The notes under the pieces are model-generated. The model saw only the letters and a list, made by a program, of their open reading frames with translations, made no database searches and was not told where the DNA came from. DNA of 63,847 bases, filler included, from Sandaracinaceae bacterium (lineage in GTDB: Bacteria; Myxococcota_A; Polyangia; Polyangiales; JADJQN01): assembly GCA_947483975.1 (NCBI GenBank). It is 4 parts of 4 records of this genome, joined end to end, with 100 filler letters (N's around TTAATTAATTAA, not from the genome) between each part and the next. Parts side by side here need not be neighbours in the genome. Positions count along the whole stretch, not along the records: positions 33,183 to 49,648 come from CANKOL010000079.1; 3 more parts are not named here. The stretch is one strand, 5' to 3'. Made by a program: the position numbers and the translations under genes. Of this stretch, positions 16,512 to 49,748 are shown piece after piece (the stretch's first letter is position 1; every line of letters begins with the position of its first letter).

Positions 16512-16611
16512 NNNNNNNNNNNNNNNNNNNNNNNNNNNNNNNNNNNNNNNNNNNNTTAATTAATTAANNNNNNNNNNNNNNNNNNNNNNNNNNNNNNNNN
16601 NNNNNNNNNNN
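16512..16611. other. Artificial contig-joining spacer
   Basis: 44 N + TTAATTAATTAA (stops in all frames) + 44 N; identical to the two other spacers. Confidence 0.98.
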
Positions 16612-33082: not shown

Positions 33083-33182
33083 NNNNNNNNNNNNNNNNNN
33101 NNNNNNNNNNNNNNNNNNNNNNNNNNTTAATTAATTAANNNNNNNNNNNNNNNNNNNNNNNNNNNNNNNNNNNNNNNNNNNN
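33083..33182. other. Artificial contig-joining spacer
   Basis: Same N/TTAATTAATTAA/N 100-mer. Confidence 0.98.
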
Positions 33183-33360
33183 CGCCGAAGAGCGCCACCC
33201 GGCGCAGGGTGTTGCGACGTCGCCTCGCGACGAGCGCGCGCTCGAGGACGGCGATCGCGTCCTTGCGGGCCGCAGCGGTTGGCGCGCCCGGCGCGCTGTC
33301 TCGGGTCTCGGCTCGGGCGAGCGCGCGCGCTGCGAGGCGCGCGAACGGTGGGCTGGTCAT
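33183..33360 (-). CDS. Probable anti-sigma (FecR-like) membrane protein, N-terminal fragment
   Basis: Start overlaps the ECF sigma stop (ATGA); RRRR followed by the start of a hydrophobic segment; cut by the gap. Confidence 0.45.
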
Positions 33361-34073
33361 GACGCACCTTCTTCATCGAGCGAAACGTCTGTGGCGAGCA
33401 CACCGGCGAGCGTCGGATCGGCTGCGACGCGCGCGTGCAGCTCGTGGCGGCCGCGCACGAGGCGGCTCTGCGCGGCGGCGACGGATACCTCGAGGACCGC
33501 CGCGGTCTCCCGCAGGTCGTAGCCCCAGACGTCGTGCAGCAGAAACGCCCACGCGCGCCCCTGGTCCATCGCCGTCAGGTGCGCGGTGACGCGCTCGATG
33601 ACCTCGCTCGCCTCGAAGTCCTCGTCGTGTCGGCTCCCCGAGGCGGCCCCGTCGATCAAGTCGTCCGGCGCCGCGAGAGAGAACGCGGCGCGCTCTAGCC
33701 GACGCCGACGGATGCGCTTGTAGACGATGTGCGCCGTCACGGTCGACGCCCAGGCATCGAGCGAGCTGTCGCCTCGGAAGCGGTCGATGCTCGTCAGGAT
33801 CTCGACGAACGCGCTCTGCGCGACGTCCTCGCGCTCTTGGTCGCTGTGCCCGAGGAGCCGACGGATCGTGCGATCGACGACCGGGCGGAGCCGGTCATGA
33901 AGCTCGGCGGCGACCCACGGATCGCCCGCGCGAACGGCGAGCAAGAGCTGGCTGTCGTCGAGCGAGGGAGCGCTCGCCGCCGACGTCGCTGCCGCCGGGT
34001 GCGGCGCCGCCTGCGTCGCCGTGGTCGCGGGGACCAGGCGGAGCTGCGGGCGGCTCGGGCGCGACGGACTCAT
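33357..34073 (-). CDS. ECF (sigma-70 family) RNA polymerase sigma factor
   Basis: Region 2 EDVAQSAFVEI...FRGDSSLDAW; region 4 FLLHDVWGYDLRETAAVLEVSVAAAQSRLVRGR. Confidence 0.9.
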   Translation of the reverse strand: MSPSRPSRPQLRLVPATTATQAAPHPAAATSAASAPSLDDSQLLLAVRAGDPWVAAELHDRLRPVVDRTIRRLLGHSDQEREDVAQSAFVEILTSIDRFRGDSSLDAWASTVTAHIVYKRIRRRRLERAAFSLAAPDDLIDGAASGSRHDEDFEASEVIERVTAHLTAMDQGRAWAFLLHDVWGYDLRETAAVLEVSVAAAQSRLVRGRHELHARVAADPTLAGVLATDVSLDEEGAS

Positions 34074-34154
34074 CGGAGGCTCACACTGTGTTGTACCGCG
34101 AGCTGTCCGCGGGCAGGCAGGCTCTGCGACGATCTCGTGTCGCGCGCCGCTTGC

Positions 34155-35261
34155 CTACAGCGACACACGCACGCCCACGCTCGCCGTCGGGCGCAGCGGC
34201 TCGAGCGTCGCGCGCAGCTCGTCGGCGACGTACACCGGCATCCGCGAGGCGACCAAGTCCGCGCCCAGCTCCGCGAGCACGGCGATGCCTCGTCGCGGCT
34301 GCCAGCTGAGCGCGAGCCCGCCCCGCCCGACGAGCGCCCACGCGGCCTGCGAGCTCTGCGCCGGGCCGCCTTCCGAGTAGTGCGACAGCGACTGCCGTCC
34401 TGCGCCCACGCCGAGCCAGACCTCGAGGTCGAGGTCGACCGCACCGCGCGCGCGCAGCGCCACGACCGACAGCCCGAGCGTCCCGGCGAGCCAGGTCGTC
34501 GACGCTTGCGCGGCCTCTACCTCACCCGCCTGAGCGCTCAGGTCGGCGCGGAGGCCGAGGCGCGCCCACGGAGCCCAGGTGACCCCGAGCGCCCCGCCCC
34601 AGGCGGTCGTCGCGCCCCCGTCCCCGAGACCGAGCGTCCCCACCCCGCGGAACTCGAGCCAGACGCGGTGGTTCTGGGCGGCCCTCGGGGCTGTCATCGT
34701 CGGCCCCGGCGAGACGGTGTGCCTGGGGTGCGCGACCGACGGCTCGGGCAAGTCGCCCGGCAGGGAGGTCGACACATCAGGCAGCATCGACAGCGTGACG
34801 AACGCCAGCGTGCGCCCGCGCTCGCTCGGCGCGTCGCCCTCGTGGAAGACCACCTCGCGCGTGAGCGCGCCCCCGTCCACCTGCACGAGGCTGAGCGAAG
34901 CGATCGTCACCTCGCCCCCCTCCGCCGCGGCCGAGGGCCCGGTCGTCAGCGTGACGACGAGGTGCAGCGTCGGGCGCGTGTCTGCCGCCCATGCACCGTC
35001 GCCCTCGGGCGCGCGCCGGACCTCCGCGACGCCCGCGAGCGCCCCACGCAGCGTGGCCTCGAGCGAGGCGGCCGTCGGATCACCCGGAGCCCCGCCGACC
35101 ACAGACAGAACGAGCAGCCAGAGCGCAGCGACCAAGAGCCTCGGCCCCAGCGTAGCCGCCCAGCCGCGCCCCGCAACGCCCGCGTCGCGGACCTTTCGCG
35201 ATGAATCTTTTGGCCGCCTGCCTGGTCTCCAGGACCTCGCGGTACAACCAAATGCGGACAT
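34155..35261 (-). CDS. Hypothetical exported protein with a probable C-terminal outer-membrane beta-barrel; start uncertain (ATG 35261 or TTG 35135)
   Basis: Signal-like LLVAALWLLVLSVVG; alternating beta-strand pattern ending ASVGVRVSL; lies upstream of the ECF sigma on the same strand. Confidence 0.5.
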   Translation of the reverse strand: MSAFGCTARSWRPGRRPKDSSRKVRDAGVAGRGWAATLGPRLLVAALWLLVLSVVGGAPGDPTAASLEATLRGALAGVAEVRRAPEGDGAWAADTRPTLHLVVTLTTGPSAAAEGGEVTIASLSLVQVDGGALTREVVFHEGDAPSERGRTLAFVTLSMLPDVSTSLPGDLPEPSVAHPRHTVSPGPTMTAPRAAQNHRVWLEFRGVGTLGLGDGGATTAWGGALGVTWAPWARLGLRADLSAQAGEVEAAQASTTWLAGTLGLSVVALRARGAVDLDLEVWLGVGAGRQSLSHYSEGGPAQSSQAAWALVGRGGLALSWQPRRGIAVLAELGADLVASRMPVYVADELRATLEPLRPTASVGVRVSL

Positions 35262-35297
35262 CGCCAGCGGCGAGTCCCAGCCAACGGAGCCCCTCTC

Positions 35298-35858
35298 ATG
35301 CGTCAACATCTTCGCGCCGTCTCGATCGTCGTTCTCTCGCTCGCTGTGGCGATCATCGCCCCCGCCCTCGCGAGCGCCGCTTTCCAGGCGACCGGCACCT
35401 CGACCGTCACCTACGAAGCGGTCGGCTCGATGGGCATGCGCTTCACCGGTACGACCCACGACCTCACGGTCGCCGACGACGGCACGCAGCTCACCGTCAC
35501 CGTGCCGCTCGCGCACCTGACCACCGGGATGGGGCTCCGCGACCAGCACCAGAACGACCACCTCGACACCGCGCACCACGGCACCGTGCAGCTCGTCGTC
35601 CCGCTGGCCTCGCTGCACATCCCGACGGGCGCCCCGACCACCGGCACCGTGACCGGCCAGCTCCGCGTCAAGGGCCTCTCGAAGCCGCTCTCCTTCACCT
35701 ACCGCGCCGAGCGCTCGGCGAACGGCCAGCTGCACATCCACGGCACCGCCACGGTCACGATGGCCAACTACGGCATCAACGTCCCGTCGTACCTCGGCGT
35801 CACGCTCCGCCCCACCGTCGCCCTCGTCGCTGATTTCAACCTCCGCAACGCACCCTGA
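35298..35858 (+). CDS. YceI-family (polyisoprenoid/lipid-binding) periplasmic protein
   Basis: Signal peptide ASA, LTTGMGLRDQH, GQLRVKG, NYGINVPSYLG. Confidence 0.85.
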   Translation: MRQHLRAVSIVVLSLAVAIIAPALASAAFQATGTSTVTYEAVGSMGMRFTGTTHDLTVADDGTQLTVTVPLAHLTTGMGLRDQHQNDHLDTAHHGTVQLVVPLASLHIPTGAPTTGTVTGQLRVKGLSKPLSFTYRAERSANGQLHIHGTATVTMANYGINVPSYLGVTLRPTVALVADFNLRNAP

Positions 35859-35868
35859 GGCCGCTTCC

Positions 35869-36786
35869 ATGAGCTTCCCCATCTCTTCCAAAAAGCACAT
35901 CGCCGCTTTCGCGGTCCTCGCAGCCACCCTGCTGACGCTCTCCGGCTGTTACTCCGGGCGCGCGACGCCCTGGGGCGTCGACGCCGATGGCGGCGGCGGC
36001 GGTGGCTACCACTGGACCAGTGACGGGGGGGGCTCAGCCGCTGCTGTCGGCGTGCCGTGCAACGTGACGGCGATCCTCCGCACGAGCTGCTGGGGCTGCC
36101 ACCCGAGCGCGGCGCAGCCCGCGATGGTCAGCTACGCCGACCTGACCGGACCCTCGTCCGTGCCGGGTCAGAGCGTCCTCGACCGCTGCCTCGCGCGCAT
36201 GACCGCCGCGAGCGGCGCGATGCCTCCTGCGCCCCGCGCGCCCGTCTCGGCGGGTGACATCGCCATCCTGCAGGCGTGGGCATCGGCCGGCGCGCCCATG
36301 GAGACCTGCACCGAAGACGGCGGCGCGCCCTTCGACGCGGGTCCGAACCCCTACGACACCCCGACGGTCTGCACCTCCGGCGCGGGCTGGAGCGGGCGCA
36401 CCGCCAACACCAGCATGGCCCCCGGTCAGCCGTGCATCGCGTGCCACACCGCGGAGGGCGAGGGCCCCTGGCCCGCGTACCGCATCGCTGGCACCGTCTA
36501 CCCGACGGCGCACGAGCCTGACGACTGCAACGGCGCCAACGGTACGGGCGTCGATGGCGCGGTCGTCGTCGTCACGGACGCGAACGGCACGGAGTTCCGG
36601 CTCCCCACCAACAGCGTCGGCAACTTCCACTCGCCTGGCGCAGGGCTCGTGATGCCTTACCTCGCGCGCGTCGAGTACCAGGGTCGCGTCCGCGAGATGA
36701 TCGGCCCGCAGACCAACGGCGACTGCAACGCCTGCCACACGCTGGCCGGCACCTCGGGTGCGCCCGGTCGCGTCATGCTCCCCTGA
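35869..36786 (+). CDS. Triheme c-type cytochrome lipoprotein
   Basis: Lipobox LSGC; three CxxCH motifs (CWGCH, CIACH, CNACH); MPP distal-Met-type motif after the first. Confidence 0.8.
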   Translation: MSFPISSKKHIAAFAVLAATLLTLSGCYSGRATPWGVDADGGGGGGYHWTSDGGGSAAAVGVPCNVTAILRTSCWGCHPSAAQPAMVSYADLTGPSSVPGQSVLDRCLARMTAASGAMPPAPRAPVSAGDIAILQAWASAGAPMETCTEDGGAPFDAGPNPYDTPTVCTSGAGWSGRTANTSMAPGQPCIACHTAEGEGPWPAYRIAGTVYPTAHEPDDCNGANGTGVDGAVVVVTDANGTEFRLPTNSVGNFHSPGAGLVMPYLARVEYQGRVREMIGPQTNGDCNACHTLAGTSGAPGRVMLP

Positions 36787-36838
36787 GCGTGCTACAGGGC
36801 GGCCGACGGCCTCTTTCTCTCTCTCTCCAGGTGAATCG

Positions 36839-38050
36839 ATGCGTCGCGGTCTCTCGCTCTCGCTGACCGTGGCACTCGCCACGGTCTTGCTCTCCACGGT
36901 CGTCAGTCCCTCGCGCGCCCACGCCTATGCTTGGCTGATCCGGCACGGATACACCGCCTGCGGGATGTGCCACGTGGATCCGTCGGGGGGCAGCTTGCTG
37001 ACCCCCTACGGGCGCGCGCAGGGCACGCTGCTGATGGCGGCGCGCTGGGGCAGCACGGACGACGAGGCCGCGGTGAAGCAGGGCGAGTTCCTCTTCGGCG
37101 CGTTCGAGCTGCCCGAGGTGCTCCAGCTCGGCGGCGACTTCCGCGGAGGCGCGCTCGCCTACACGACGGGCGGCGGCCCGGCCGACTCGCGCGCGCTCCT
37201 GATGCAGGCCGACCTCGAGGCCGGCCTGAGCATCGGTCGCTTCCGCGCAGCCGGTAGCCTCGGCTTCGCCACGGACGGCGCCTTCGCGGCGACGATCGTC
37301 GGCAACAATGATGGGCGCCTCGTCTCTCGCGCGCACTGGCTCGGCGTCTCGCTCGGTGAGAACGACGAGTGGCTGCTCCGCGCCGGGCGCATCAACGTCC
37401 CGTTCGGCGTGCGGACGATCGAGCACACGTCCTGGATTCGCAAGGACACGCGCACCGACATCAACGTGTCGCAAGAGGACGGCATCACGCTGTCGTACGC
37501 CGGTGAGGCGTGGCGCGGCGAGGCGATGGCTATCCTCGGCAACTATCAGATCGGCCCCGACGAGTACCGCGAGCGCGGCGGCAGCGCTTATGTCGAGTTC
37601 ACCCCGGTCGAGGGCCTCGGCTGGGGCCTCAGCGCGCTCGTGACGAGCGTGAAGAAGGACCTGCAGCTGCAGACGCCGCTCATCCGGCACGCGTACGGCG
37701 CGTTCGTCCGCTACTCGCCCGCGCTCTGGGTCGTGCTCCTCGCTGAGGCCGACGCGCTCGTGTACTCGCAGCTCGAGCACAACGCCTTCGGCGTCTCGGC
37801 GTGGGTCCAGGCGGACTTCGAGCCGACGCAGGGATTGCACATCATCCCGACGCTCGAACTCTCGGACCGCGACACCGCCATTCAGGGGCCGTCGGTCGGT
37901 GGCGCGCTCGGCGTCGCGTGGTTCTTCCTCCCGCACATCGACGCCCGCGTGGACTTCGGCGTCTCGAGCCAGGTGGTGCCCGGCGCTCCCGGAACGACGG
38001 TGCGCGGCACCGGCGAGTCCGTCCTCGCGCAGCTCCACTGCTACCTGTGA
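36839..38050 (+). CDS. Monoheme cytochrome c fused to a probable outer-membrane beta-barrel (Cyc2-like architecture)
   Basis: Signal peptide ending AHA; CGMCH near the mature N-terminus followed by LTPYGR; amphipathic beta-strand pattern over the rest. Start set at ATG 36839. Confidence 0.7.
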   Translation: MRRGLSLSLTVALATVLLSTVVSPSRAHAYAWLIRHGYTACGMCHVDPSGGSLLTPYGRAQGTLLMAARWGSTDDEAAVKQGEFLFGAFELPEVLQLGGDFRGGALAYTTGGGPADSRALLMQADLEAGLSIGRFRAAGSLGFATDGAFAATIVGNNDGRLVSRAHWLGVSLGENDEWLLRAGRINVPFGVRTIEHTSWIRKDTRTDINVSQEDGITLSYAGEAWRGEAMAILGNYQIGPDEYRERGGSAYVEFTPVEGLGWGLSALVTSVKKDLQLQTPLIRHAYGAFVRYSPALWVVLLAEADALVYSQLEHNAFGVSAWVQADFEPTQGLHIIPTLELSDRDTAIQGPSVGGALGVAWFFLPHIDARVDFGVSSQVVPGAPGTTVRGTGESVLAQLHCYL

Positions 38051-38058
38051 GGACACCG

Positions 38059-38562
38059 ATGAACCGACTCAGCTCCTCCGTTCGTCTCTCGCTCTTCGCT
38101 GCCCTCGCGCTCACCACGCTCGCCGCGGCTCCCTTGTCGGCCCACGCCTCGCCGGCCTTCCCCGGCACGATGCTGGACCATCTGGCGCTGCCGCAGGCGC
38201 CGCCGTGCTGGGTCTGTCACGCGGGCAACGTCACCTCCTACGACACGGTGTTCACGCCCTTCGGGCGCTCGCTGCGCTTGAACGGGCTCATCGCAGAGGA
38301 CTCCACCAGCCTCACGCGCGCGCTCGACGAGCTCGACCGCAACAACATCGACAGTGATCACGACGGTATGTCGGACATCGACGAGCTGATGCGCGGCTAC
38401 GACCCGAACACGCCGCCCTTCGAGGGACCGGCGCCCGAGTGGAAGGTCGGCTGCGACGCGGCGGGCGGCGCGGGTGGCGCGCCTCTGACTGGCGGCCTCG
38501 CGCTCACCGCCGTGGTCGGACTCGCGCTCGTCGGCTGGCGCGCCCGCTCCCGCAAGCGCTGA
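38059..38562 (+). CDS. Small monoheme cytochrome c with Ca-binding-type loop and MYXO-CTERM-like surface-sorting tail
   Basis: Signal peptide AHA; CWVCH...TPFGR; DSDHDGMSDIDE; C-terminal GC-linker-TM-WRARSRKR. ATG 38059 with GAGG RBS. Confidence 0.75.
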   Translation: MNRLSSSVRLSLFAALALTTLAAAPLSAHASPAFPGTMLDHLALPQAPPCWVCHAGNVTSYDTVFTPFGRSLRLNGLIAEDSTSLTRALDELDRNNIDSDHDGMSDIDELMRGYDPNTPPFEGPAPEWKVGCDAAGGAGGAPLTGGLALTAVVGLALVGWRARSRKR

Positions 38563-38738
38563 GCGTCGTTCGCGGCGGCTCTCCTCGCTCGCGCACCGCA
38601 GATCCCGTTGGCGTAGCCCCGCGGCCGAGTGGTACACCTCGACTTCGGGGCTCGCGCACGTCCGTCTGCGTGTGCACGCTCGAGCCGCGCGGCTCCCGCG
38701 CGCGCAGTCGTCGTGCAGACGAGTGAGGGGAGACCGCG

Positions 38739-41054
38739 ATGCGAGTGACCTTGGTGGGCGCCGACTTCGAGGAGAACTTGGGCGTAGGCATGATCGCCGC
38801 CGTCGCGGAGGCCGCAGGGCACGCCGTGCACATCGTGGCGTTCAACGACCCCGCGCGGATGGACCGCGTCGTCCGCGAGGTGCTCGACGCTCGCCCGGAC
38901 GTCGTCGGGCTCTCGATGCAGTTCCAGCATCGCGCGCACGAGTTCCTTTCGTTTGCGCGGAGGCTGCGCGCCGCTGGTTTCGGCGGACACATCACCGCGG
39001 GCGGGCAGTTCCCGACGCTCGCCGACCGCGAGGTGCTCGGCGCCGACACCGCGCTCGATTCCGTCGTGCTGCACGAGGGGGAGGAGACGTTCCCCGCGTT
39101 GCTCGCCGCGCTCGCGGAAGGGCGCCCGCTCAGCGACGTCGCGGGGCTCGCGCTCCCGTCCGCTTCGGGGCCGAGTCGCACGGCTGATCGGCGCCTGCCC
39201 GATGACCTCGATCTCTTCCCCTATCCGCGGCGCTATCGCGGGCACGTCAAGCACTTCGGCGTCCCGTTCATCCCGGTGATGGGGAGCCGCGGCTGCTGGG
39301 GCAAATGCAGCTATTGCGCGATCACCTCTTTTTACCGAGACGCCCGCGCTCACGGCGGCGGTCGCGCGCTGCGCCTGCGCAGCCCGGAGCACGTCGCTGG
39401 CGAGATGGCGCTCCTCTGGCACGCCGCGGGCGCACCCTCGATCTTCTGCTTTCACGACGACAACTTCGTGCTCCCGCGCGCGAGCGACACGCTCGAGCGA
39501 GTCCGCGCGATCCGCGCTGAGCTCGACGGCTACGGCGTCGGGCGCATCGGCATCGTCGGCAAGGCGCGCCCCGACACGCTGACGCCGGAGCTCGCGCGGG
39601 ACCTCGCCGCGCTCGGCGTGATCCGCCTCTACGTCGGCGTCGAGAACGCGTCCGAGCATGGTGCCGCGGACCTGCGCCGCGGCACGCAGACGGCGCACGT
39701 GCGCGAGGCGCTCCGCGCGTGTCGCGAGGCGGGCATCTTCGTTTGCTACAACCTGCTCGTCTTCGAGCCGGAGTCGACGCTCGCGGACCTCCGCGAGAAC
39801 GTCGCGTTCATCCGCGCGCACGCCGATCATCCCGTGAATTTCTGCCGCGCGGAGCCTTATTACGGCACGCCGCTGCACCTCGAGCTCGCCGCGAAGCAGG
39901 ACCTCGGCGGCAGCTACCTCGGCTGGAACTACCGCATCGAGGACGCCCGCGCGGAGCTCGCCTTCCGCATCTCGTCGGCGGCGTTCCGCGAGCGTAATTT
40001 CTCGCCCGACGGCGTCGCCAACCGCTTCATGGGGCTCGGCTACGCGGCGAAGGTCGTGTCGCACTTCCACGGCGCGACGAGCCCGGCGTTCGCCGCGCGC
40101 GCGCAGGCGCTCTCGGCCCGCGCGCTCGACGTCACGCGCTCGATCTCGCGCGACACGGCCGACTTCCTCGAGGAGGCGATCGCCCTCGCAGAGTCGGTGT
40201 CGCTCGACGACCGCGACCTCCTCGAGCGCGAGACGGCGCTGCTCGGGCTCCGCATCGCCGCCGCCGACGCACGCTGGCACGCCGTGCTCGACGGGCTCTT
40301 CGCGGACCTCGAGGCGCTCTCCCGCGAGCCCCTCGCGGCGCCTCGGCAGAGGCGCGTCGCGCCGCCCAACAAGCTCGTGGAGTTGGCGCGCAACGTCGCC
40401 CTCGGCGGCGCGCTCGCGGTGTGGACGGCCAACGTCCAGGGCTGCGCGGCGAGCGTCGTCGACCCCGTCCCGCCCGACGCCGGGCCCGACTTCATGGTCG
40501 TCGACCCGCCTCCCCCCGACGCCGGCGTGGACTTCGGCAGCCCGGTAGACCCGCTCCCCGAGGACGCCGGCATCGACCTCGGGATGCCCGTCGATCCGCC
40601 GCCCTACGACGCGGGGATGCCCGTCGACGTGCTCCCGTGGGACGCAGGAATGCCCGTCGATCCGCCGCCCTACGACGCGGGTCGCCCCGTCGATCCGCTC
40701 CCGCCGGATGGCGGCATGGCGCTCTCTGCGCCCGCCTCGCCCAACGTGCGCCTCGCCATCGTCGACCAGTGGCGCGACTCGTCCTCGCGCGCCGTGCGCA
40801 CGCGCGACCTCGCGCTCTTCGAGCCGCCGACGCCGCGCCTCGTCACGCTCTCGACGTCGAGCGGCACCTCCCGCGTCCGCGTCGAGGGCGTCGACCCGAC
40901 GGCCGGCGTGCGCTGGGAGTCGGACGGCGACACGCGCGAGGACGGCCACGAGGTCGAGTGGACCCCGCGCGACTCCGACGATCGCCTGCGCGTCGCCGTG
41001 CGTACTCACGGCGGCGTCGCCGTCATCAGCGTGCGCGCCCCGCGCGTCGGCTGA
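38739..41054 (+). CDS. Cobalamin-binding (class B-type) radical SAM enzyme with C-terminal repeat array and small beta domain
   Basis: N-terminal B12-binding domain (LGVGMIAA...PDVVGLS...TAGGQFPT...EGE), SRGCWGKCSYC (CxxxCxxC), FHDDNF, YVGVEN, EPYYGTPL; GAGGGGAG RBS. Confidence 0.9.
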   Translation: MRVTLVGADFEENLGVGMIAAVAEAAGHAVHIVAFNDPARMDRVVREVLDARPDVVGLSMQFQHRAHEFLSFARRLRAAGFGGHITAGGQFPTLADREVLGADTALDSVVLHEGEETFPALLAALAEGRPLSDVAGLALPSASGPSRTADRRLPDDLDLFPYPRRYRGHVKHFGVPFIPVMGSRGCWGKCSYCAITSFYRDARAHGGGRALRLRSPEHVAGEMALLWHAAGAPSIFCFHDDNFVLPRASDTLERVRAIRAELDGYGVGRIGIVGKARPDTLTPELARDLAALGVIRLYVGVENASEHGAADLRRGTQTAHVREALRACREAGIFVCYNLLVFEPESTLADLRENVAFIRAHADHPVNFCRAEPYYGTPLHLELAAKQDLGGSYLGWNYRIEDARAELAFRISSAAFRERNFSPDGVANRFMGLGYAAKVVSHFHGATSPAFAARAQALSARALDVTRSISRDTADFLEEAIALAESVSLDDRDLLERETALLGLRIAAADARWHAVLDGLFADLEALSREPLAAPRQRRVAPPNKLVELARNVALGGALAVWTANVQGCAASVVDPVPPDAGPDFMVVDPPPPDAGVDFGSPVDPLPEDAGIDLGMPVDPPPYDAGMPVDVLPWDAGMPVDPPPYDAGRPVDPLPPDGGMALSAPASPNVRLAIVDQWRDSSSRAVRTRDLALFEPPTPRLVTLSTSSGTSRVRVEGVDPTAGVRWESDGDTREDGHEVEWTPRDSDDRLRVAVRTHGGVAVISVRAPRVG
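40455..40715 (+). repeat. Seven imperfect in-frame peptide repeats VD(P/V)xPxD(A/G)G
   Basis: VDPVPPDAG, VDPPPPDAG, VDPLPEDAG, VDPPPYDAG, VDVLPWDAG, VDPPPYDAG, VDPLPPDGG; exact 32-bp duplication at 40584-40615 and 40650-40681. Confidence 0.92.
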
Positions 41055-41080
41055 ATCATCGGCCCGATGAGCCCGACTCG

Positions 41081-41674
41081 ATGAAGCCCACCCGACGGAC
41101 GCTGCTCAAGCTCGTAGGCGCCGGCGCAGCGGCCGTCGTGCTCACTCAGCTCGACGCGCGCGCGCCGCTCCCGGCGCCGGGCGCGCGGCTCGTCGCGCTC
41201 ACTCCGCACGAGGCGGCGATGGTCGAGGCGATCGGCGCGCGGATCTGGCCCGGCAGCCCGAGCGACCCCGGCGCGCGTGAGGCGGGGACCGTTCGCTACA
41301 TCGACCTCGCCCTCGCGGGCGCGCTCGCGGAGCACCTCGACACTTATCGCCGCGCCCTCCGTGAGCTCGACGCGGCGTCGCGCGCCCAACACCGCGCGCC
41401 CTTCGCCGCGCTCGACGACTCCGAGCAGGACGCGCTGCTCGGGGCCCTGTCGCTGGGCCGTCTATCCTCAGTGCGCGAGGGCCCCGCGTTCTTCGGGCTC
41501 GTCCGCACGCACACGCTCGAGGGGCTCTTCGCCGACCCGCTCCACGGCGGCAATCGCGACCTCGCCGGCTGGAGGGCTGTCGGCTATCCAGGGCCGTTCT
41601 ACGCGATCGGTCCCGACGAACAGCAGCGCTCCGACGAGTCCGAGCTGCCCTATCGAAGCCTCGATGACCTCTGA
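41081..41674 (+). CDS. Gluconate 2-dehydrogenase subunit 3 (gamma)-family protein with Tat signal
   Basis: TRRTLLK twin-arginine motif, PGAREAG..YID..L, EGLFADPLHGGN...GWRAVGYPG. Start set at ATG 41081. Confidence 0.88.
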   Translation: MKPTRRTLLKLVGAGAAAVVLTQLDARAPLPAPGARLVALTPHEAAMVEAIGARIWPGSPSDPGAREAGTVRYIDLALAGALAEHLDTYRRALRELDAASRAQHRAPFAALDDSEQDALLGALSLGRLSSVREGPAFFGLVRTHTLEGLFADPLHGGNRDLAGWRAVGYPGPFYAIGPDEQQRSDESELPYRSLDDL

Positions 41675-41704
41675 GCGCGCCTGAGCGCCGGCGACCGCAA
41701 GCCC

Positions 41705-43465
41705 ATGGCGCTCCTACCTCGAAAAGACGTCGTCATCGTCGGCTATGGAGCCGCGGCGGGCCCGGTCTCGCTCGAGCTCGCGCGCGCCGGGCAATCCGTC
41801 GTCGCCCTCGAAGCCGGCGCGCATCGGACCGCCGCGACGGACTTTCATCGCGGCTCGCTGGACACGCTCCGCTGGCGCACTCGCCGCGAGATGATCGACG
41901 GCAGGCGCATGGCGCTGACCTTCCGCAATGCGCAGTCGGAGGTGGCCGCGCCGTGGAATGGCATCTACGCGATGGCCTCCACCGTCGGCGGCTCTTCCGT
42001 GCATTGGTCCGGGCAGTCCTGGCGCTTTTACGCGGACGACTTCCGCGTGAAGTCCGCGCTCGAGGAGCGCTATGGGCGCTCTGGGCGACTCGCGCATCTG
42101 CGCGCAGACCACGCCGCGCTCGAAGATTGGCCCATCACCTACGAGGAGGTCGAACCCTTCTACGAGAAGGTCGAATACGCGCTCGGGATCGGCGGCTGGC
42201 CGGGCAACCTCGGCGGGCGAATTCGCCCCGTCCATCCCCATGAGGGCAATCCCTACGAGGCCCCGCGAAAGCGCGACTTCCCCTATCGGCCGCTCCGCGA
42301 CAACGCCACGGATCTCGTGTTCCGTGAGGGCGCGCTCGCCCGCGGACTCCAGCCCTTTCACGTCCCGACGGGCGTCAGCATGGACGGCGCGTGGGCCTCG
42401 ACCGAGGGTGTGCGGCGCCCCGGCTGCACCTATTGCAGCTTCTGCACGGGCTTCGGCTGCTGGAACGACTCGAAGACCTCGACGCTCTCTGCCCTCTTGC
42501 CCGCCGCGCAGCAACTCCCGCACTTCGAGCTGCGCCCGCACTGCTACGTCACGCGCATCAACCACCGAGACGGACGCGCCGTCAGCGTCAGCTATCGCAA
42601 TGAGAACGGCGTCGAGCACGAGCAACCCGGCGACGTCTTCATCCTCGGCGCGTACTCGTTCCAGAACGTGCGACTGCTCCTGCACTCCGGCATCGACGGC
42701 AACGGGCAGATTGGCAAGTACTTCATCAACCGCGCGACGACGAACCTGCACGCGATCTTCGGGCGCAGGCTCCTCAACGGCTGGAACGGTCCCTCCGTGC
42801 AGCGGCAAGGCGTCGACGACTACAACGGCGAGAACGCGATGGAGCAGAAGCTCCAGTTGCCGCCGGAGCAGTTCTTCGTCCGCGGGGCGTTCATCGGCTC
42901 TCCGTCGCAGCGCGTGCCGCTCGAGTCGTACGATCTGCACCCGCCCGACGTGCCCTCTTGGGGCGCGGCGTACAAGCGCTTCATGAGCGAGAACCTGAAT
43001 CGCTACATGGGATTGCAGCTCCTCACCGAGGCGATGCCCTACGAGGACTGCACGCTCGACCTCGACCCGAACTACAGCGACGAATACGGGATGCCCTATT
43101 GTCGCGTCACGCGGTCGGTGAAGCAGAACGAGCGGCGAATGGCGCACTTCATCTGGGACCGCGCGAAGGAGCTCGTCGAGGCTGCCGGCGCGACGAAGGT
43201 CTGGGGCGAGCGCAGCGCGACGGCGATCGCGTCGTCGACCCACGACCTCGGCGGCGCGCGCATGGGCACGGACCCGACCAAGTCCGCGACCAACCGCTAC
43301 GGGCAACTCTGGTCGACGCCGAACCTCTTCGTCACGGGCGGCGCGCTGATGCCGAGCCTCGGCGGCCACAATCCCACGCAGACGATCTGGATGCTGAGCT
43401 ATTGGCTCGCCGACGCCCTCCTTCAGCGCAAGGTCCGACTCGACGACTCGATGGCTTACACCTGA
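41705..43465 (+). CDS. GMC-family flavoprotein dehydrogenase (gluconate 2-dehydrogenase alpha-like)
   Basis: DVVIVGYGAAAG FAD motif, VGGSSVHW, DWPITYEEVEPFY, CTYCSFCTGFGC Fe-S motif, HDLGGARMG, NPTQT. Confidence 0.9.
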   Translation: MALLPRKDVVIVGYGAAAGPVSLELARAGQSVVALEAGAHRTAATDFHRGSLDTLRWRTRREMIDGRRMALTFRNAQSEVAAPWNGIYAMASTVGGSSVHWSGQSWRFYADDFRVKSALEERYGRSGRLAHLRADHAALEDWPITYEEVEPFYEKVEYALGIGGWPGNLGGRIRPVHPHEGNPYEAPRKRDFPYRPLRDNATDLVFREGALARGLQPFHVPTGVSMDGAWASTEGVRRPGCTYCSFCTGFGCWNDSKTSTLSALLPAAQQLPHFELRPHCYVTRINHRDGRAVSVSYRNENGVEHEQPGDVFILGAYSFQNVRLLLHSGIDGNGQIGKYFINRATTNLHAIFGRRLLNGWNGPSVQRQGVDDYNGENAMEQKLQLPPEQFFVRGAFIGSPSQRVPLESYDLHPPDVPSWGAAYKRFMSENLNRYMGLQLLTEAMPYEDCTLDLDPNYSDEYGMPYCRVTRSVKQNERRMAHFIWDRAKELVEAAGATKVWGERSATAIASSTHDLGGARMGTDPTKSATNRYGQLWSTPNLFVTGGALMPSLGGHNPTQTIWMLSYWLADALLQRKVRLDDSMAYT

Positions 43466-43475
43466 CGCCCGCGCC

Positions 43476-44639
43476 TCACTCGACGATCGATCCGCTGACC
43501 ATCGGCGGCCCGCTCGCGAGGACGAAGATCCCCGGATAGCCGCTCGTCTCGAAGCCGTCGCTCGGGTTCGCGCGCAGCACCGAGTCCTGAATCACGAGCG
43601 ACCCGCTGCGGTCGTTGCTGACGAAGAAGATCGCGCCGCCTCCCTCGTTCGCGTGATTGTCGTGCATCGCGACGCCGCAGAGCGTCAGCGTGAAGGTGTT
43701 GCCATCGTTGTAGATCGCGCCGCCGCTGCCTCCGCCGGGTGTGCCCGCCGCCATCGGGTTGGCGCCGCTCCCGACCGCGCGGTTGTAGCTGAAGAGGCTG
43801 TTGAGCACGGTATACGAGACTCCGATGCTGCTGAGTCCGCCGCCGTTCGAGCAGACGTTGCCGAGCGCGGGAGTGCCGCCGAAGGTGCTGTCTACGACGT
43901 ACACGGGCAGCCCCCCGGATTGGCTCAACACTCGCACGGCCGCGCCCCCGAGGTCCGGCCCCGTCGGGTCACACTCGTTGTGGAAGAAGCGCGAGTGCAC
44001 GATTCGCACGCGGCCGCCGCGCACGAAGACCGCGCCCCCGCCGCCCCCCTCGGTGGCGTCTCCCGTGGAGTTTCCGTCGATGAAGGTGAGGTTCTGGAGC
44101 GTGAGGCGCGGCGTGTCCTGATCCTGGCAGTGCGGCGTCGTCCAGTGCTGCGCCTCGTCGCAGGTGTTCATGTAGAGGATGCGCCGCGCGCCTGCGCCGC
44201 TCAGCGTCACGAGGTCGCCGCCGTCGATGACGATCTCCGGAGTCGAGTCGTTGAAGACCTTGGCAGTCTGGGCGAGCGTGATGGTCAGTGGCGCGGGCCC
44301 GCAGTCGAAGGTGATGACGCCGCCGAGCGCGACGGCGGCGACGAACGCCTCGCTCGTGCAGCTCGCGGGCGTGCCGTCGCCGACGACCTGCGTTGGACTC
44401 GAGGTGTCCGCCAGCGCGGCCTCCGGCGGGACGACGCAGTGCCCGTCGGGGTTGCCTGCGGGCGGTCCCTCGCTCGGCAAGGTGTGCGGATCGGCGGCGT
44501 CCGGCGCTGTCGCGGCCGAGTCGGTGAGGCCGCCGTCAGGTAACGGCACGCCCGTCGGCGACGACCCGCAGCCGACGGTGAGGACGAGCAGCGTGAGCGC
44601 GAGCGCTGTGGAGGAGGAAAGCTGAGCCATGCGTCGCAC
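43476..44639 (-). CDS. Lipoprotein with right-handed beta-helix (Pmp/pectin-lyase-like GGA(I/V) and FxxN repeats); alternative start 44630
   Basis: Lipobox TVGC; GGAVF, GGAAV, GGAIY, GGAIF with FFHN and FSYN. Confidence 0.7.
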   Translation of the reverse strand: MRRMAQLSSSTALALTLLVLTVGCGSSPTGVPLPDGGLTDSAATAPDAADPHTLPSEGPPAGNPDGHCVVPPEAALADTSSPTQVVGDGTPASCTSEAFVAAVALGGVITFDCGPAPLTITLAQTAKVFNDSTPEIVIDGGDLVTLSGAGARRILYMNTCDEAQHWTTPHCQDQDTPRLTLQNLTFIDGNSTGDATEGGGGGAVFVRGGRVRIVHSRFFHNECDPTGPDLGGAAVRVLSQSGGLPVYVVDSTFGGTPALGNVCSNGGGLSSIGVSYTVLNSLFSYNRAVGSGANPMAAGTPGGGSGGAIYNDGNTFTLTLCGVAMHDNHANEGGGAIFFVSNDRSGSLVIQDSVLRANPSDGFETSGYPGIFVLASGPPMVSGSIVE

Positions 44640-44780
44640 GGTCGCACGGCGCAGGGAGCCGCGGCAATCGAGCGGACTCGAGGCGCGACATGAATGTCAC
44701 AGACGGCCTGCGCAACAGGCGTCTTTCCCTTGCCATTCTGCCCCCTCGGGAGCGGTACGCGCCGTGCTACCGGCGAGCGC

Positions 44781-46397
44781 ATGACTTCGATGACTCGCAG
44801 GGTGGTCAGCGGGTGTGGGTTGTTCTTACTCTTCGCCGCGTGCGGCGATATGACGGGTGATCGCTCGCCCGGAATCCCGCTCGCAGATGGCGGGATGTTC
44901 TACTACGACGCGGGGGGAGGCTATCCCCGCTCTGACGGAGGGGCGGCGATCGACAGCGGTCCTCCCGAGGTCGAGGAGGTGCGCAGCTTCGAGACGCCGC
45001 GCGCCGGCGCGCGCTACGTCTATGTGGCCAATCCGCGCCGCGACACCGTCGCAGTGATCGACTCGACGACGCTCGCGATTCGCAGCGTCGAAGCGGGCGA
45101 TGGCCCTACTTATTTGAGCGTCGTGCCCGGGCGGGACGTCGCCGTCGTGCTCAACGTCGGCTCCGACGACGCGACGATCTTGCGCACGGACGGCGCTGGG
45201 ACGCGCACGAGCACGGTGCCGGTGGTGCACGGGACGAACGCCCTCGCCGTCGCGCCGGACGGCCTGCACGCCATCGCCTGGCTAGACACCTCGACGGCAG
45301 GCTCGGGCATCGGCACCGGGAGCTTTCAGGACATCACGCTGATCGACCTCGCGGACGCGGGCGACCGCGCGGTGGACCTCACGGTGGGGTTTCGCCCGCT
45401 CGAGATCGTGTATTCGCAAGACGGCGCGACAGCGTTCGTCGTGACTGAAGATGGCATTTCGATCGTGCACTTCGCGGACATCACGACTCCGACGATCGTG
45501 CCACTCGTGCCCATCGACGACGCGAGCGGTCCCTTTGCCCGCGATGTGTCGATCACGGGCGATGGGCGCTATGCGCTCGTGCGCAGCGAGGGCGAGAGCG
45601 TCGTGCGCCTGGTGGAGCTCGCGGGCGCGGTGTCGACGAGCATGGATGTCGGCGTGCCGATCACGGACGTCGATCTCTCGCCGACGGGGGCGTTCGCGCT
45701 CGTCGTGCTCCGGGAGACGTCGACGCTGCTGCGGATCCCGCTGCCCGCGGGCTTCTCCGATCCGACGCAGGTCGTCGCGACGACCTTCGCGGACGAGGTC
45801 TTCGGCTCGGTGACGATCACGCCGGACGGGCGCCGCGCGCTCCTTTACACGACGGCGACGCCCGTCGAGCGCCTGATCGTCGTGGACCTCGACGACGCCT
45901 CCGCGGAGGCGCCGCGCATCGTGCGGTTGCGCAAGGGAGTGCGCGCCGTCGGGGTCTCGCCCGATGGCTCGACGGCGGTGATCGTGCACACGCGCATCGA
46001 CGGCGACCCGAGCGATCCCACCGTCGACCTCGACACGCGCATCGACCGCTCGTTCGGCTACACGATGCTCGATCTGCGGAGCGGCTTCGCGAAGCTGCAG
46101 ATCACCGAGGCGGAGGTCGGTCCGCTCGCGCTCTCGCCCGACGGCGCCTACGCCTTCACGTTCTTGCGCAACGACGCCGCGAGCGTGCGCGTGCTGCAGC
46201 GCATCGCGCTCGCGTCCTTCCTCGTCGACGGCTACGCGCTCGGGAGCCCGCCGCTCTCGCTCGGCATCGTGCCGGCGACGTCGCGCGCCTTCGTCGGGCA
46301 GCTTCATCCGGAGGGGCGCATCGGCTTCCTCGAGTGGGAGACGGGCGCGCTCGTCTCGGTCACTGGCTTCGAGCTCAACGGGAGGATCAGCGAATGA
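44781..46397 (+). CDS. Beta-propeller (YncE/YVTN-like) lipoprotein
   Basis: Lipobox FAAC; repeated blades (YVYVANP..DTVAVID, APDG, SQDG, TGDGRYALV, TPDGRRAL, SPDG). Start set at ATG 44781. Confidence 0.75.
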   Translation: MTSMTRRVVSGCGLFLLFAACGDMTGDRSPGIPLADGGMFYYDAGGGYPRSDGGAAIDSGPPEVEEVRSFETPRAGARYVYVANPRRDTVAVIDSTTLAIRSVEAGDGPTYLSVVPGRDVAVVLNVGSDDATILRTDGAGTRTSTVPVVHGTNALAVAPDGLHAIAWLDTSTAGSGIGTGSFQDITLIDLADAGDRAVDLTVGFRPLEIVYSQDGATAFVVTEDGISIVHFADITTPTIVPLVPIDDASGPFARDVSITGDGRYALVRSEGESVVRLVELAGAVSTSMDVGVPITDVDLSPTGAFALVVLRETSTLLRIPLPAGFSDPTQVVATTFADEVFGSVTITPDGRRALLYTTATPVERLIVVDLDDASAEAPRIVRLRKGVRAVGVSPDGSTAVIVHTRIDGDPSDPTVDLDTRIDRSFGYTMLDLRSGFAKLQITEAEVGPLALSPDGAYAFTFLRNDAASVRVLQRIALASFLVDGYALGSPPLSLGIVPATSRAFVGQLHPEGRIGFLEWETGALVSVTGFELNGRISE

Positions 46398-48013
46398 CCC
46401 GCACTCACTACCTCGCTCGTCGCGCGACGGTCGCGCGTGCGCTCGCCCTCGGCGTCGTGACCCTCGCGGTCACCGCGTGCGCCGACCGCGCCAAGGAGTT
46501 CGACGCGGCGCTGCTGACGCTGCCGCCCGTCGCGCTCGGCTCTTCGCTCGTCTTCGTGGACTCTTCCGCGCAGACGACCTACGTGCTCGACGTGACGCGC
46601 CCCTCCGTCGCGCCGCGCACGGTCACCGTCGGCGCCGGGGCGTCCACGGTCGCGCGCCGCAACGAGCACAACGAGGCGCTCGTGCTCTGCCGCGGAGAGC
46701 GCGGCGGCGTCGGCGTCGCGCCCGAGGCCTCGTCCCTGACGGTCGTGCCCGGCGCCTACCGCGCCGCGCCGCGCACCTACGTGCTCGGCAGCCCGTTCAA
46801 CGCGATCGCGCAGACGCCCGACGGCGCGCGCGCGCTCGTGCACTTCCGCACCGGCGAGGGGCTCGCGGGGCTGCTGTTCAACCCGAACGAGATCGCCGTG
46901 CTCGACCTCGACGCGGCGCCCTCGGCGACGAACCCGGTGCGCCGCACGGTGCGCAGCTTCGGCGGCGTGCCGAGCGCGGTGGTCTTCTCGCCGCGGATGG
47001 CGCTGCCGGAGGGCCCGCGGACGCTCGCGGTGATCCTCTCGGATGCGTACGTAACTCTGCTCGATGTAGACAATCCAGACCGTCCCGAGATTACCGTTCC
47101 GCTCGCGCTTCCAGAAGACCGCCGCGCCGTGCTGCCCGTGCAGGTGCTCTTCGACGCGGACGATCCGACCATCTACATCCGCGCCTCCGCGTCCGACGAC
47201 ATCTTCGCGCTGCGCCTCCAAGAGGTGCCGAGCGCAGAGCGCGCCGGCAACGACTTCCGCCCGTCTCTGACGCAGCTCGCCGTCGGCAGTCGCCCGAACG
47301 ATATGGCGCTCTTCGACGCCGGCGAGGGCAAGCGCCTGATCGTCCCGTCGCGGGCGAGCAGCAATGTGTCGATCGTCGACGCGCGCTCGAGCAGCGTGAC
47401 GACGATCCCGCTCGACGTCGCCGCTGACCGCGTGCTCGTGTACGACGCGACGGCGCCGGGCGATCCGAGCGTGACGCCACGCGCGCTGCTCTACGCTGCC
47501 GACGGCGCTGCGAGCGCGCTCAGCTTCGTCGACCTCGCGCAGGTCGAGGCCCGGCGCGGCCGCAACGTCGAGACGGACTCGATCGGTCGGCCGATCGTCG
47601 GCGTGCTGCCGCTGCTCGACCGGGGCCTGGTCGTGCTGCAGCACTCGTCGGTGACCGGCGCGCCCGGGCTGAGCCTGCTCGACCTCGCGGCGCGCACCTC
47701 GGCCCCCATCTACGCCGATGTGCCGCTCGAGAGCGCGACCTTCGGCACGGGGCAGTCGCGCATCTACGTCGCGCCGTCCTATGGGGTGCGCCTCGGCTAC
47801 CTCGACCTCGCGACCTTCGTGCCGGGCGAGGTGCGCCTCGACGCGTCGATCTCCGCCGTGCTGCCGCTGGCCGATGTGCCGATCGTCGCCGTCGTGCACA
47901 CGGGCTACGCGGGGCACGTCACGCTGCTCGACGCGAACGATCTGCGCCGCGAGAGCGCGCGCTCCATTCAAGGCTTTCTGCTCTCCGACCTGCTCGCGCG
48001 AGGTGACCAATGA
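46394..48013 (+). CDS. Second beta-propeller lipoprotein
   Basis: ATG 46394 overlaps the previous stop (ATGA); lipobox VTAC; TPDGARALV and repeated (V/L)xxLD blade ends. Confidence 0.7.
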   Translation: MTRTHYLARRATVARALALGVVTLAVTACADRAKEFDAALLTLPPVALGSSLVFVDSSAQTTYVLDVTRPSVAPRTVTVGAGASTVARRNEHNEALVLCRGERGGVGVAPEASSLTVVPGAYRAAPRTYVLGSPFNAIAQTPDGARALVHFRTGEGLAGLLFNPNEIAVLDLDAAPSATNPVRRTVRSFGGVPSAVVFSPRMALPEGPRTLAVILSDAYVTLLDVDNPDRPEITVPLALPEDRRAVLPVQVLFDADDPTIYIRASASDDIFALRLQEVPSAERAGNDFRPSLTQLAVGSRPNDMALFDAGEGKRLIVPSRASSNVSIVDARSSSVTTIPLDVAADRVLVYDATAPGDPSVTPRALLYAADGAASALSFVDLAQVEARRGRNVETDSIGRPIVGVLPLLDRGLVVLQHSSVTGAPGLSLLDLAARTSAPIYADVPLESATFGTGQSRIYVAPSYGVRLGYLDLATFVPGEVRLDASISAVLPLADVPIVAVVHTGYAGHVTLLDANDLRRESARSIQGFLLSDLLARGDQ

Positions 48014-48840
48014 CCCGGACTCGAGCCTCGCTGATCGCGGTCTTGTGCTGCCTCTCGTTCGCGTCCCTCGCCGCCGCAGAGCCGCCGCCGCAGCCGTCCG
48101 CGTCTCCACAGCCTGCGGCGCAGCCGGAGGGAACAGCGACGGTCGAAGGGCCCGAGTCGGACCTCGAGGAGGCGCCCTTCGGCAACGACGCTCCGGGGCT
48201 GGCGGGGCGCCTCGCGGTGGCAGGCAATCTCGAGCTGCTCTGGTATCTCGACACAGCCCATCAAGCGTTCGCGCGGAGCCCCGGGCTGACCGCGGGCGGG
48301 CTCTCGGCGTCCCTGACGCTCTTGGAGTTCGCGCCGCGCTGGCTGCTCGACGTCGGCGTCGGCTGGCGAATCGAGACCTCGGAGGCGCTGACGCTGCAAG
48401 CGTTCACTGCCGCGTACGAGGCGAACACCGAGTACGCCGACGCCGCGCTGCGCTTCGAGCTACTGCCGTGGTTCGTGCCGCGCGCGCGGGTCTCCGTTGG
48501 GGTGCAGTACCTCGCGGCGAGCCTCAACCCGGTCGACGGCACGACCCCCCTCGAGGGCGACGCGTTCTCGCTCGTGACGAGCGCGGGCATGGGCGTCGAG
48601 CTGCTCGGGCGCCTCGGGGATGGGCTCACGCCCCGCGGCGGAGAGCCCGCGTCCGTCGCGCTCTCCCTCGTCGTCGAGGGAGGCATCGTCCTCGGCACGA
48701 GCGCGCCGCTGAGCGTCGCCCCGCGCGAGCCGAGCGACCCGACGGTCGCGGCAGACCGCATCGCCGTCGTCGGCACGAAGCTCGGCACGCTCGGCGGCAT
48801 CGCGCCGTATCTGCGGATCGCGGGCGTCATTCGCTTCTGA
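48010..48840 (+). CDS. Probable small outer-membrane beta-barrel protein
   Basis: ATGA overlap; signal peptide AAA; amphipathic strands; C-terminal YLRIAGVIRF ending in Phe. Confidence 0.65.
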   Translation: MTRTRASLIAVLCCLSFASLAAAEPPPQPSASPQPAAQPEGTATVEGPESDLEEAPFGNDAPGLAGRLAVAGNLELLWYLDTAHQAFARSPGLTAGGLSASLTLLEFAPRWLLDVGVGWRIETSEALTLQAFTAAYEANTEYADAALRFELLPWFVPRARVSVGVQYLAASLNPVDGTTPLEGDAFSLVTSAGMGVELLGRLGDGLTPRGGEPASVALSLVVEGGIVLGTSAPLSVAPREPSDPTVAADRIAVVGTKLGTLGGIAPYLRIAGVIRF

Positions 48841-48906
48841 GCGAGGCGCCGACGCGCTTCAGGGCGAGCTGCGCCCAAGGACCTCGCGCGAGGCGCGCGG
48901 CAGGCT

Positions 48907-49648: not shown

Positions 49649-49748
49649 NNNNNNNNNNNNNNNNNNNNNNNNNNNNNNNNNNNNNNNNNNNNTTAATTAA
49701 TTAANNNNNNNNNNNNNNNNNNNNNNNNNNNNNNNNNNNNNNNNNNNN
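49649..49748. other. Artificial contig-joining spacer
   Basis: Same N/TTAATTAATTAA/N 100-mer. Confidence 0.98.

Follow-up and report, generated by a model that had tools for sequence, protein, structure and literature searches.

A class B radical SAM enzyme fused to a lipoprotein-like module with a proline-rich repeat array in a Sandaracinaceae bacterium

We characterized an open reading frame (ORF) of a Sandaracinaceae bacterium (assembly GCA_947483975.1), located at positions 38739-41054 of a 63,847-nucleotide stretch that was analyzed as a whole (hereafter the window, to which all coordinates refer unless a locus is named). Judged by its domains, the ORF encodes a class B (cobalamin-dependent) radical S-adenosylmethionine (SAM) enzyme that is predicted to be cytoplasmic. 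Behind the enzyme, the same polypeptide carries a module made up, in this order, of an internal lipoprotein-type signal, an acidic VDPxPxDAG array, a linear motif, and an immunoglobulin (Ig)-like domain. The reading that we favor, at a probability of roughly 0.45, is that a cytoplasmic enzyme has been fused to an exported lipoprotein module and probably acts on that module before export. The enzyme class is a known one in an undescribed fusion with an exported module, in that no description of an enzyme-lipoprotein fusion architecture was found in word searches of open-access text. Hundreds of homologues have this design, and they belong to no named family.

An initial annotation, prepared from the DNA alone, had recognized the ORF, its two enzyme domains, the CWGKCSYC motif, seven repeat units, and a 32-bp duplication, all in a single frame, and our analysis agrees with these observations. 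The features of the ORF, with the evidence for each, are as follows.

38739-41054, plus strand: whole ORF, 771 amino acids, stop codon included
38772-39104, plus strand: B12-binding domain, residues 12-122 (PF02310, E 3.8e-19, 69.1 bits against a cut-off of 32.1)
39285-39797, plus strand: radical SAM core, residues 183-353 (PF04055, E 2.9e-17, 63.8 bits against a cut-off of 29.5)
39294-39317, plus strand: CWGKCSYC cluster motif, residues 186-193, within the radical SAM core
40083-40325, plus strand: two long helices after the barrel, residues 449-486 and 492-529 (AlphaFold2, predicted local distance difference test (pLDDT) >90)
40341-40391, plus strand: basic, n-region-like stretch, residues 535-551 (sequence and alignment)
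40392-40445, plus strand: hydrophobic stretch ending in Gly-Cys569, residues 552-569 (internal lipoprotein-signal-like element)
40455-40721, plus strand: acidic, proline-rich array of seven VDxxPxD[AG]G units, residues 573-661 (pattern and tandem periods)
40584-40615, plus strand: first 32-bp duplicate (exact copy)
40650-40681, plus strand: second 32-bp duplicate (exact copy)
40752-40835, plus strand: conserved linear motif IVDQWRD...R..DL.L..PP, residues 672-699 (alignment)
40836-41036, plus strand: seven-strand, immunoglobulin-like beta sandwich, residues 700-766 (pLDDT >90 in the full model and when folded alone)
16512-16611, 33083-33182, and 49649-49748: runs of N between the contigs of the window

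The internal signal and the split enzyme-lipoprotein pairs

Residues 535-569, which the initial annotation had overlooked, lie between the enzyme and the repeats and consist of a basic stretch, a hydrophobic stretch, and a Gly-Cys pair. Together they resemble an internal lipoprotein signal. A word-indexed protein search returned 576 proteins at E<=1e-3 among 8000 scored, and the 120 best of these are 643-824 amino acids long and 44-100% identical to the window protein (BLASTP), with nearly all covering its full length. Conservation counts given here refer to 113 aligned homologues. The layout before the array is the same in every one of them: a basic stretch, about 14-19 uncharged residues, a small residue, and Cys. 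All 113 sequences have a Cys behind the hydrophobic stretch, with Ala, Gly, or Ser immediately before this Cys in 112, and a stricter lipobox pattern, modeled on the PROSITE rule, is satisfied by 73. The 28 aligned columns preceding the hydrophobic stretch have a median net charge of +2, and both the basic n-region and the uncharged h-region of a lipoprotein precursor are present. Because this conserved signal and its invariant Cys part the enzyme from the array, the tail has the look of a lipoprotein module destined for export, not of a borosin-like core that stays in the cytoplasm. Twin-arginine export was also considered as a general route and rejected; an RR pair occurs in the window protein and in some homologues, but inspection by eye showed it to be absent from many.

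Homologues that lack the tail point in the same direction. Two of these (L011 and L023; 51% identical) each have an abutting upstream gene that bears an N-terminal lipoprotein signal, and the two upstream partners are 33% identical (E 7e-40). When 201 genomes of the order were searched for such partners, matches were obtained in 12 genomes, nine of them full-length, and each of the nine full-length partners, a lipoprotein gene of about 350 amino acids, has a tail-less radical SAM homologue directly downstream on the same strand. The split versions envisaged in the initial annotation therefore do exist, in nine genomes and in the form of a tail-less enzyme that follows a lipoprotein gene. In the nine partners, an invariant SSG..C..C..IAEMAP.P and, after it, D.LPL precede the C-terminal domain, which matches that of the fused tail in hhalign (probability 84%, E 7.3e-6, 84 columns). 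No VDPxPxDAG array is found in the split partners, which keep the signal and the C-terminal domain, and several fused clades have the signal and likewise lack the array, so the array is not common to all enzyme-tail pairs. At the level of sequence, what is established is that this enzyme family occurs repeatedly together with a lipoprotein-type module, which either forms part of the same chain, behind an internal signal, or is the product of the adjacent gene. Since a lipoprotein that is a protein of its own cannot hold a cytoplasmic enzyme at the membrane, the two are most simply linked as enzyme and substrate that meet before export.

The repeat array and the diversity of tails

Seven strict VD..P.D[AG]G units span residues 574-659 (nucleotides 40458-40715), with tandem periods of 45 and 33 nt and with variable spacers of 2-6 residues between units, in which no cleavage motif was recognized. 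An exact 32-mer occurs at 40584 and 40650, and at no third site in the window. The single uninterrupted frame through enzyme and tail is borne out by contigs of four other runs, from two studies, that cover 40200-41100 and for which no insertions or deletions are listed. One contig (run X6) carries an in-frame deletion of 66 bp (40584-40649) that removes two repeat units; the deleted segment is exactly the 66 bp between the two 32-bp duplicates, with the first copy as its left edge. Since the contigs of other runs agree and one of them differs by an in-frame deletion, the frame is real and the number of repeats is polymorphic in natural populations.

As the initial annotation had anticipated, the motif is conserved while its copy number varies. 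Between 0 and 7 strict units occur per homologue (18 of 113 have none), and at least one DPxP is present in the tail of all 113, compared with 4 of 113 within the first 520 amino acids. In homologues, 77-159 amino acids lie between the Cys and the conserved linear motif, and the median net charge of this region is -15; in distant members DPxP is kept and the DAG part is lost. Clusters of at least three DP[LVPAI]P within 120 amino acids were found in 2 of 2906 coding-like frames of this genome, namely the gene described here (on contig C79) and its paralogue on C413; because DPxP clusters are confined to the family within this genome, the repeats exceed what would be expected by chance. At least three P.D[AGSLF]G per 100 amino acids were found in 10 of 2643 coding-like frames, one of which is this ORF. 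Among the nine others, six have a lipobox-like pattern no more than 120 amino acids upstream and three read as Cys-rich proteins of secreted type. The possibility that the repeats are just a D(A/G)G linker, raised in the initial annotation, is therefore half correct. By its distribution, the P-x-D-[AG]-G half is the linker that predicted exported proteins of this genome ordinarily have, whereas the D-P-x-P half belongs specifically to the present enzyme family.

A match to the family was found in 27 of 41 related genomes, several of which hold more than one copy, and the present genome has two further paralogues (C413, 59% identity; C95, 39%). Homologues at 29-40% identity have the same internal signal and Cys with other tails behind them. 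These include a PEPEPEP linker with a PEGA domain (L024; Pfam E 1.8e-4), Cys-rich domains (L012 and L027), a region of about 470 amino acids (L022), and tails with EMAPxP or MEAAP motifs (C95/L021 and L041). The tail of the C95 paralogue (G000:C95, locus L021 7821-10013) ends with EMIAPP, MAEAAP, and EMAPMP, and EMAP.P occurs once among the 1.24 million residues of this genome, in that tail. In the clade of L043, L044, L046, L047, and L051, the 84-119 residues that follow the Cys consist of DPxPPP repeats only, with 34-43% proline, and end in Lys/Arg with no folded domain. A survey of wider clades covered 42 distinct ORFs from the loci that were fetched, 32 of them complete. The strict signal expression was passed by 24 of these 32 and four others are tail-less; L001 (the window gene), L004, L008, and L052 have long tails and fail the expression, and the segment was read in L001 and L008 only. 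In a quick tree each tail type fell within one enzyme clade (100 in the SH-like approximate likelihood-ratio test, SH-aLRT). The orthologue L008 (G004:C35) has an apparent frameshift after the array, its Ig-like domain being a separate match in another frame; the gene is broken or the assembly is wrong at this place.

No split gene encoding the tail as a stand-alone protein was seen in the 23 sequences read out of 39 shorter matches and 121 representatives of 1.84 billion. Four of the 23 are unrelated repeat proteins, and the other 19 look like fragments rather than split genes because they start within the helical part of the enzyme or within the tail.

The enzyme, the modeled tail, and readings of the fusion

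As in class B radical SAM enzymes, an N-terminal cobalamin-binding domain is followed by a CxxxCxxC motif in a partial TIM barrel. The B12 domain also matches cobalamin-binding domains by fold, and of the cluster cysteines C190 and C193 are invariant in the homologues and C186 is kept in 99%. The best fold match of the core is TsrM (Z-score 23.7, 423 aligned, root-mean-square deviation 3.4), followed by MgmA (Z-score 23.1), OxsB (22.7), CysS (22.7), AprD4 (22.1), and TokK (20.5), and a sequence search of the PDB with the family profile gave OxsB, AprD4, and CysS only. No NCBIfam model reaches its cut-off for the protein. The best score, 95.7 bits for ApyD (NF050148), compares with a cut-off of 750 and that for the HpnR hopanoid C-3 methylase (TIGR04367), 87.7 bits, with one of 650, which places the protein in neither family; weak matches to another hopanoid enzyme, HpnJ, were also obtained. 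Three further cysteines of the radical SAM core, C237 (39447-39449), C336 (39744-39746), and C369 (39843-39845), are invariant in the 113 homologues, and C328 is kept in 88%. These residues may bind an auxiliary cluster or play a part in catalysis.

The AlphaFold2 model was computed with 113 homologues for the cluster representative P0001, whose one difference from the window protein is S667L, and has a mean pLDDT of 84.2 and a predicted template modeling (pTM) score of 0.82. Its confident core comprises residues 1-556 (mean pLDDT 92 at residues 541-550). The 119 residues from 558 to 676, which include the array, fall below 50, and residues from about 690 to 766, which contain the beta sandwich, exceed 90. 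The linear motif has low to middling model confidence and is better conserved than the array (mean top-residue frequency 0.66 vs. 0.48), with D676, W678, D680, and R687 invariant in 113 sequences. The helical region described in the initial annotation is thus present, whereas the beta-rich end of about 110 residues that was said to follow the repeats resolves into the linear motif (residues 672-699) and a sandwich of about 67 residues. Taken by itself, the tail domain has only generic Ig/FN3/PKD-like fold matches (best Z-score 6.9); Foldseek gave no match for it at E<=0.001, Pfam has no family for the tail of the window protein, and the ESM Atlas provided no usable match. The model hints at a confident placement of the Ig-like domain relative to the core, since a pTM of 0.82 would otherwise be hard to reach with 119 disordered residues, an argument that is arithmetic from one number.

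If the protein is a cytoplasmic enzyme fused to an exported lipoprotein module, as we favor, the enzyme would act on its own tail in the cytoplasm. The most likely reaction would be C-methylation, because this is the commonest chemistry of the enzyme class, and it would probably take place at a motif that contains proline, such as the DPxP units or the conserved stretch before the Ig-like domain; a shared [D/A]-P-x-P core, which is our own reading of the motifs, is a further candidate. The internal signal would then carry the tail through Sec, and Lgt and signal peptidase II would lipidate it, and perhaps cut it, at the Cys, which would leave a modified lipoprotein outside and the enzyme inside. 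Export, lipidation, cleavage, the modification, and its site are all steps that we infer. A more specific form of this scheme, which we put forward tentatively, is a self-contained "polyprotein" that would carry out a one-time modification of [D/A]-P-x-P in its own tail and use the internal signal both as export signal and as release site. Its product would be a carbon-modified, lipid-anchored, proline-rich stalk protein in the envelope, and the spent enzyme would stay inside.

Parts of this scheme have counterparts in known systems. The class B enzymes ApyD, MgmA, and TsrM act on peptides or proteins and have in common with the window protein an N-terminal B12 domain and a CxxxCxxC barrel; PoyC and Mmp10 are further class B radical SAM enzymes with peptide or protein substrates. 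To our knowledge, no such enzyme is fused to the substrate on which it acts, to a signal peptide, or to a domain that is exported. In borosins such as OphMA, a SAM-dependent N-methyltransferase is fused to its own core peptide. The fusion described here is alike in uniting an enzyme and a candidate substrate in one polypeptide, and in having split forms too, but it differs in its chemistry (B12 radical SAM rather than N-methyltransferase), in the lipoprotein-type signal and Ig-like domain of its tail, and in that self-modification is putative. The tail shares with lipoprotein precursors processed by Lgt and LspA the succession of basic residues, hydrophobic residues, and a small residue with Cys, as well as a D/G/P-rich linker like that of the genome's own lipoproteins; it differs in that the signal lies about 540 residues in, behind a folded cytoplasmic enzyme. 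No description of an internal lipobox or internal lipoprotein signal of this sort was found in open-access text. The order of segments is also that of TonB-type envelope proteins, which have a membrane segment, a proline-rich acidic spacer, and a small C-terminal domain, but TonB lacks a large cytoplasmic enzyme and a lipobox Cys, and no sequence or fold match to TonB was present among the fold matches listed for the Ig-like domain. Anaerobic sulfatase-maturating enzymes are radical SAM enzymes that modify periplasm-destined proteins in the cytoplasm. Likewise, QhpD is a radical SAM enzyme that modifies QhpC in the cytoplasm, in a single turnover, ahead of the passage of QhpC to the periplasm, and one operon encodes both QhpD and QhpC (PMC7876137), an arrangement that resembles the split operons found here. 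QhpD and the sulfatase-maturating enzymes differ in being SPASM-type proteins without B12, in being separate from their substrates, and in that those substrates are not lipoproteins with internal signals.

Several observations weigh against the view that the enzyme acts on a tail that is then exported. Canonical lipoprotein signals do not lie about 540 residues into a protein; the element occupies residues 535-569 of 771 rather than the N-terminus, and in the window protein its box, N-V-Q-G-C, fails the stricter lipobox pattern because of Asn at -4. The link between split partners and fused tails consists of the hhalign match at 84% probability, built from nine partner sequences, and comparisons of single sequences are weak (E 0.14 and 0.0026). 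The array is disordered in the AlphaFold2 model (pLDDT <50) and is not docked, and it may be a mere spacer, since DPxP arrays are missing from the split partners and from several of the fused clades. The substrate could also be a lipid or small molecule, given that the named families score far below their cut-offs. If the Ig-like domain is folded and docked in the cytoplasm, export through Sec would need renewed unfolding. Finally, the tracking of tail type with enzyme clade proves little, because it is trivial for fused genes, and no co-evolution is drawn from it.

The alternative that survives best, although we consider it doubtful, is a membrane-anchored enzyme with another substrate. The signal would remain uncleaved as an anchor (N-in, C-out), the array would be a periplasm-spanning stalk, the Ig-like domain would dock or sense in the envelope, and the enzyme would work on a membrane lipid or on another protein rather than on its own tail. 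Such a topology is consistent with the basic residues before the hydrophobic stretch and the strongly acidic region (median -15) after it, with a linker of exported type that is predicted to be disordered, with the clade that has a PEPEPEP linker and a PEGA domain, and with the weak family matches to HpnR and HpnJ. However, the small residue and Cys conserved in 112 of 113 homologues would have no role in a plain anchor, and the split partner, being a separate lipoprotein, could not tether the enzyme. The pTM, which hints at a docked Ig-like domain, and the clade whose tails are DPxPPP repeats only, with no domain to hold, also fit this alternative poorly.

The model proposed in the initial annotation, in which a cytoplasmic, borosin-like enzyme modifies itself and the seven VDPxPxDAG units are core peptides that are later released, appears improbable. 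It is in keeping with a conserved motif whose copy number ranges from 0 to 7 and is polymorphic within a population, with DPxP clusters that are exclusive to the family, with split forms, and with the lack of a conserved partner gene at the loci compared; moreover, ApyD, which is the named family closest to the protein, methylates a peptide at C-beta and makes beta-methyltyrosine there (PMC10635010). Yet it leaves unexplained the conserved signal with its invariant Cys, the conserved Ig-like domain, and the lipoprotein nature of the split partners, which themselves have no array. In addition, no protease or unit-flanking cleavage motif was seen, strict copies are missing from 18 of 113 homologues, distant members retain DPxP only, and the docking of repeats in the enzyme that this model led one to expect did not appear, as AlphaFold2 leaves the array disordered.

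It is still harder to see the whole protein as cytoplasmic, with a hydrophobic helix that packs on the enzyme, dimerizes, or binds the membrane peripherally, an array that serves as a flexible linker, and an Ig-like domain that acts as a cap for binding the substrate. The pTM of 0.82, which suggests a docked Ig-like domain, the alignment with OxsB, which extends to model residue 752, and the mean pLDDT of 92 for residues 541-550 speak for this arrangement, but the lipobox-like Cys is conserved, the linker type is found elsewhere in the genome in exported proteins only, and the split partners bear true N-terminal lipoprotein signals. Least probable of all is that translation from a start codon inside the gene makes the tail, for the most part, as an ordinary lipoprotein by itself, the fusion having little or no functional meaning; although ATG or GTG stands exactly at the point where a signal peptide would start in L044, L046, L047, L024, and L027, and one sub-clade has M-P-R there, this start is not conserved (GCC in L043, CTG in L051, no Met in most of the 113), the window gene offers only GTG at V547 and TTG at L549 with no Shine-Dalgarno-like sequence seen, 120 of 120 listed homologues are called as single long proteins and so have no stop between enzyme and tail, and the short database matches read start in the helical part or the tail and are fragment-like.

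Were the tentative "polyprotein" scheme correct, no earlier case would be known of a radical SAM enzyme that is fused to the substrate on which it acts, nor of an internal lipobox that separates an enzyme from its product. Modification of the tail by its own enzyme would extend autocatalytic, enzyme-fused peptide modification from SAM N-methyltransferases to B12 radical chemistry and would make envelope lipoproteins a new target class for radical SAM enzymes; if the modified tail were also exported, a lipoprotein signal would work from inside a polypeptide. Even a membrane-tethered enzyme would have an unusual topology for a radical SAM protein. The gene family offers defined constructs for the recognition of internal signals by Sec, Lgt, and LspA.

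Contig, neighboring genes, and processing machinery

The window is made up of four contigs of a metagenome-assembled genome (C77, C78, C79, and C113) joined by the N runs given above, and the gene lies on C79 (window 33183-49648), so gene context is valid within 33183-49648 only. The G+C content is about 70%. The source names of homologues point to the polyangial branch of the Myxococcota (Sandaracinaceae, Polyangiaceae, Haliangium, and Byssovorax). The gene's stretch is contained in lake-water and freshwater metagenome runs, and as a check of expression no RNA run was found among the runs listed.

No neighbor of the fused enzyme gene is common to the 10 loci compared. Directly 5' of the gene, the ORF at 38056-38562 (plus strand) encodes 168 amino acids with a signal-like N-terminus, CxxCH, and an Asp-rich stretch, and ends with Gly-Cys, a hydrophobic stretch, and basic residues; it has no Pfam match. 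Its C-terminus resembles the MYXO-CTERM sorting tail, a candidate likeness. Farther upstream, the ORF at 35869-36786 (plus strand) is lipoprotein-like and has several CxxCH motifs, with sub-threshold Pfam matches to cytochrome c only. Downstream, 41084-43465 (plus strand) encodes a homologue of gluconate 2-dehydrogenase subunit 3, which has a sub-threshold Pfam match to a Tat signal, followed by a GMC oxidoreductase (Pfam). This pair is not kept beside the enzyme in the other genomes compared.

The machinery for lipoprotein processing is present in the genome, with two matches to lspA and eight to LGT. At G000:C343:3458-5512, two tandem signal peptidase II matches have LGT matches adjoining them, and from these matches the lipoprotein-processing gene set of the genome looks expanded.

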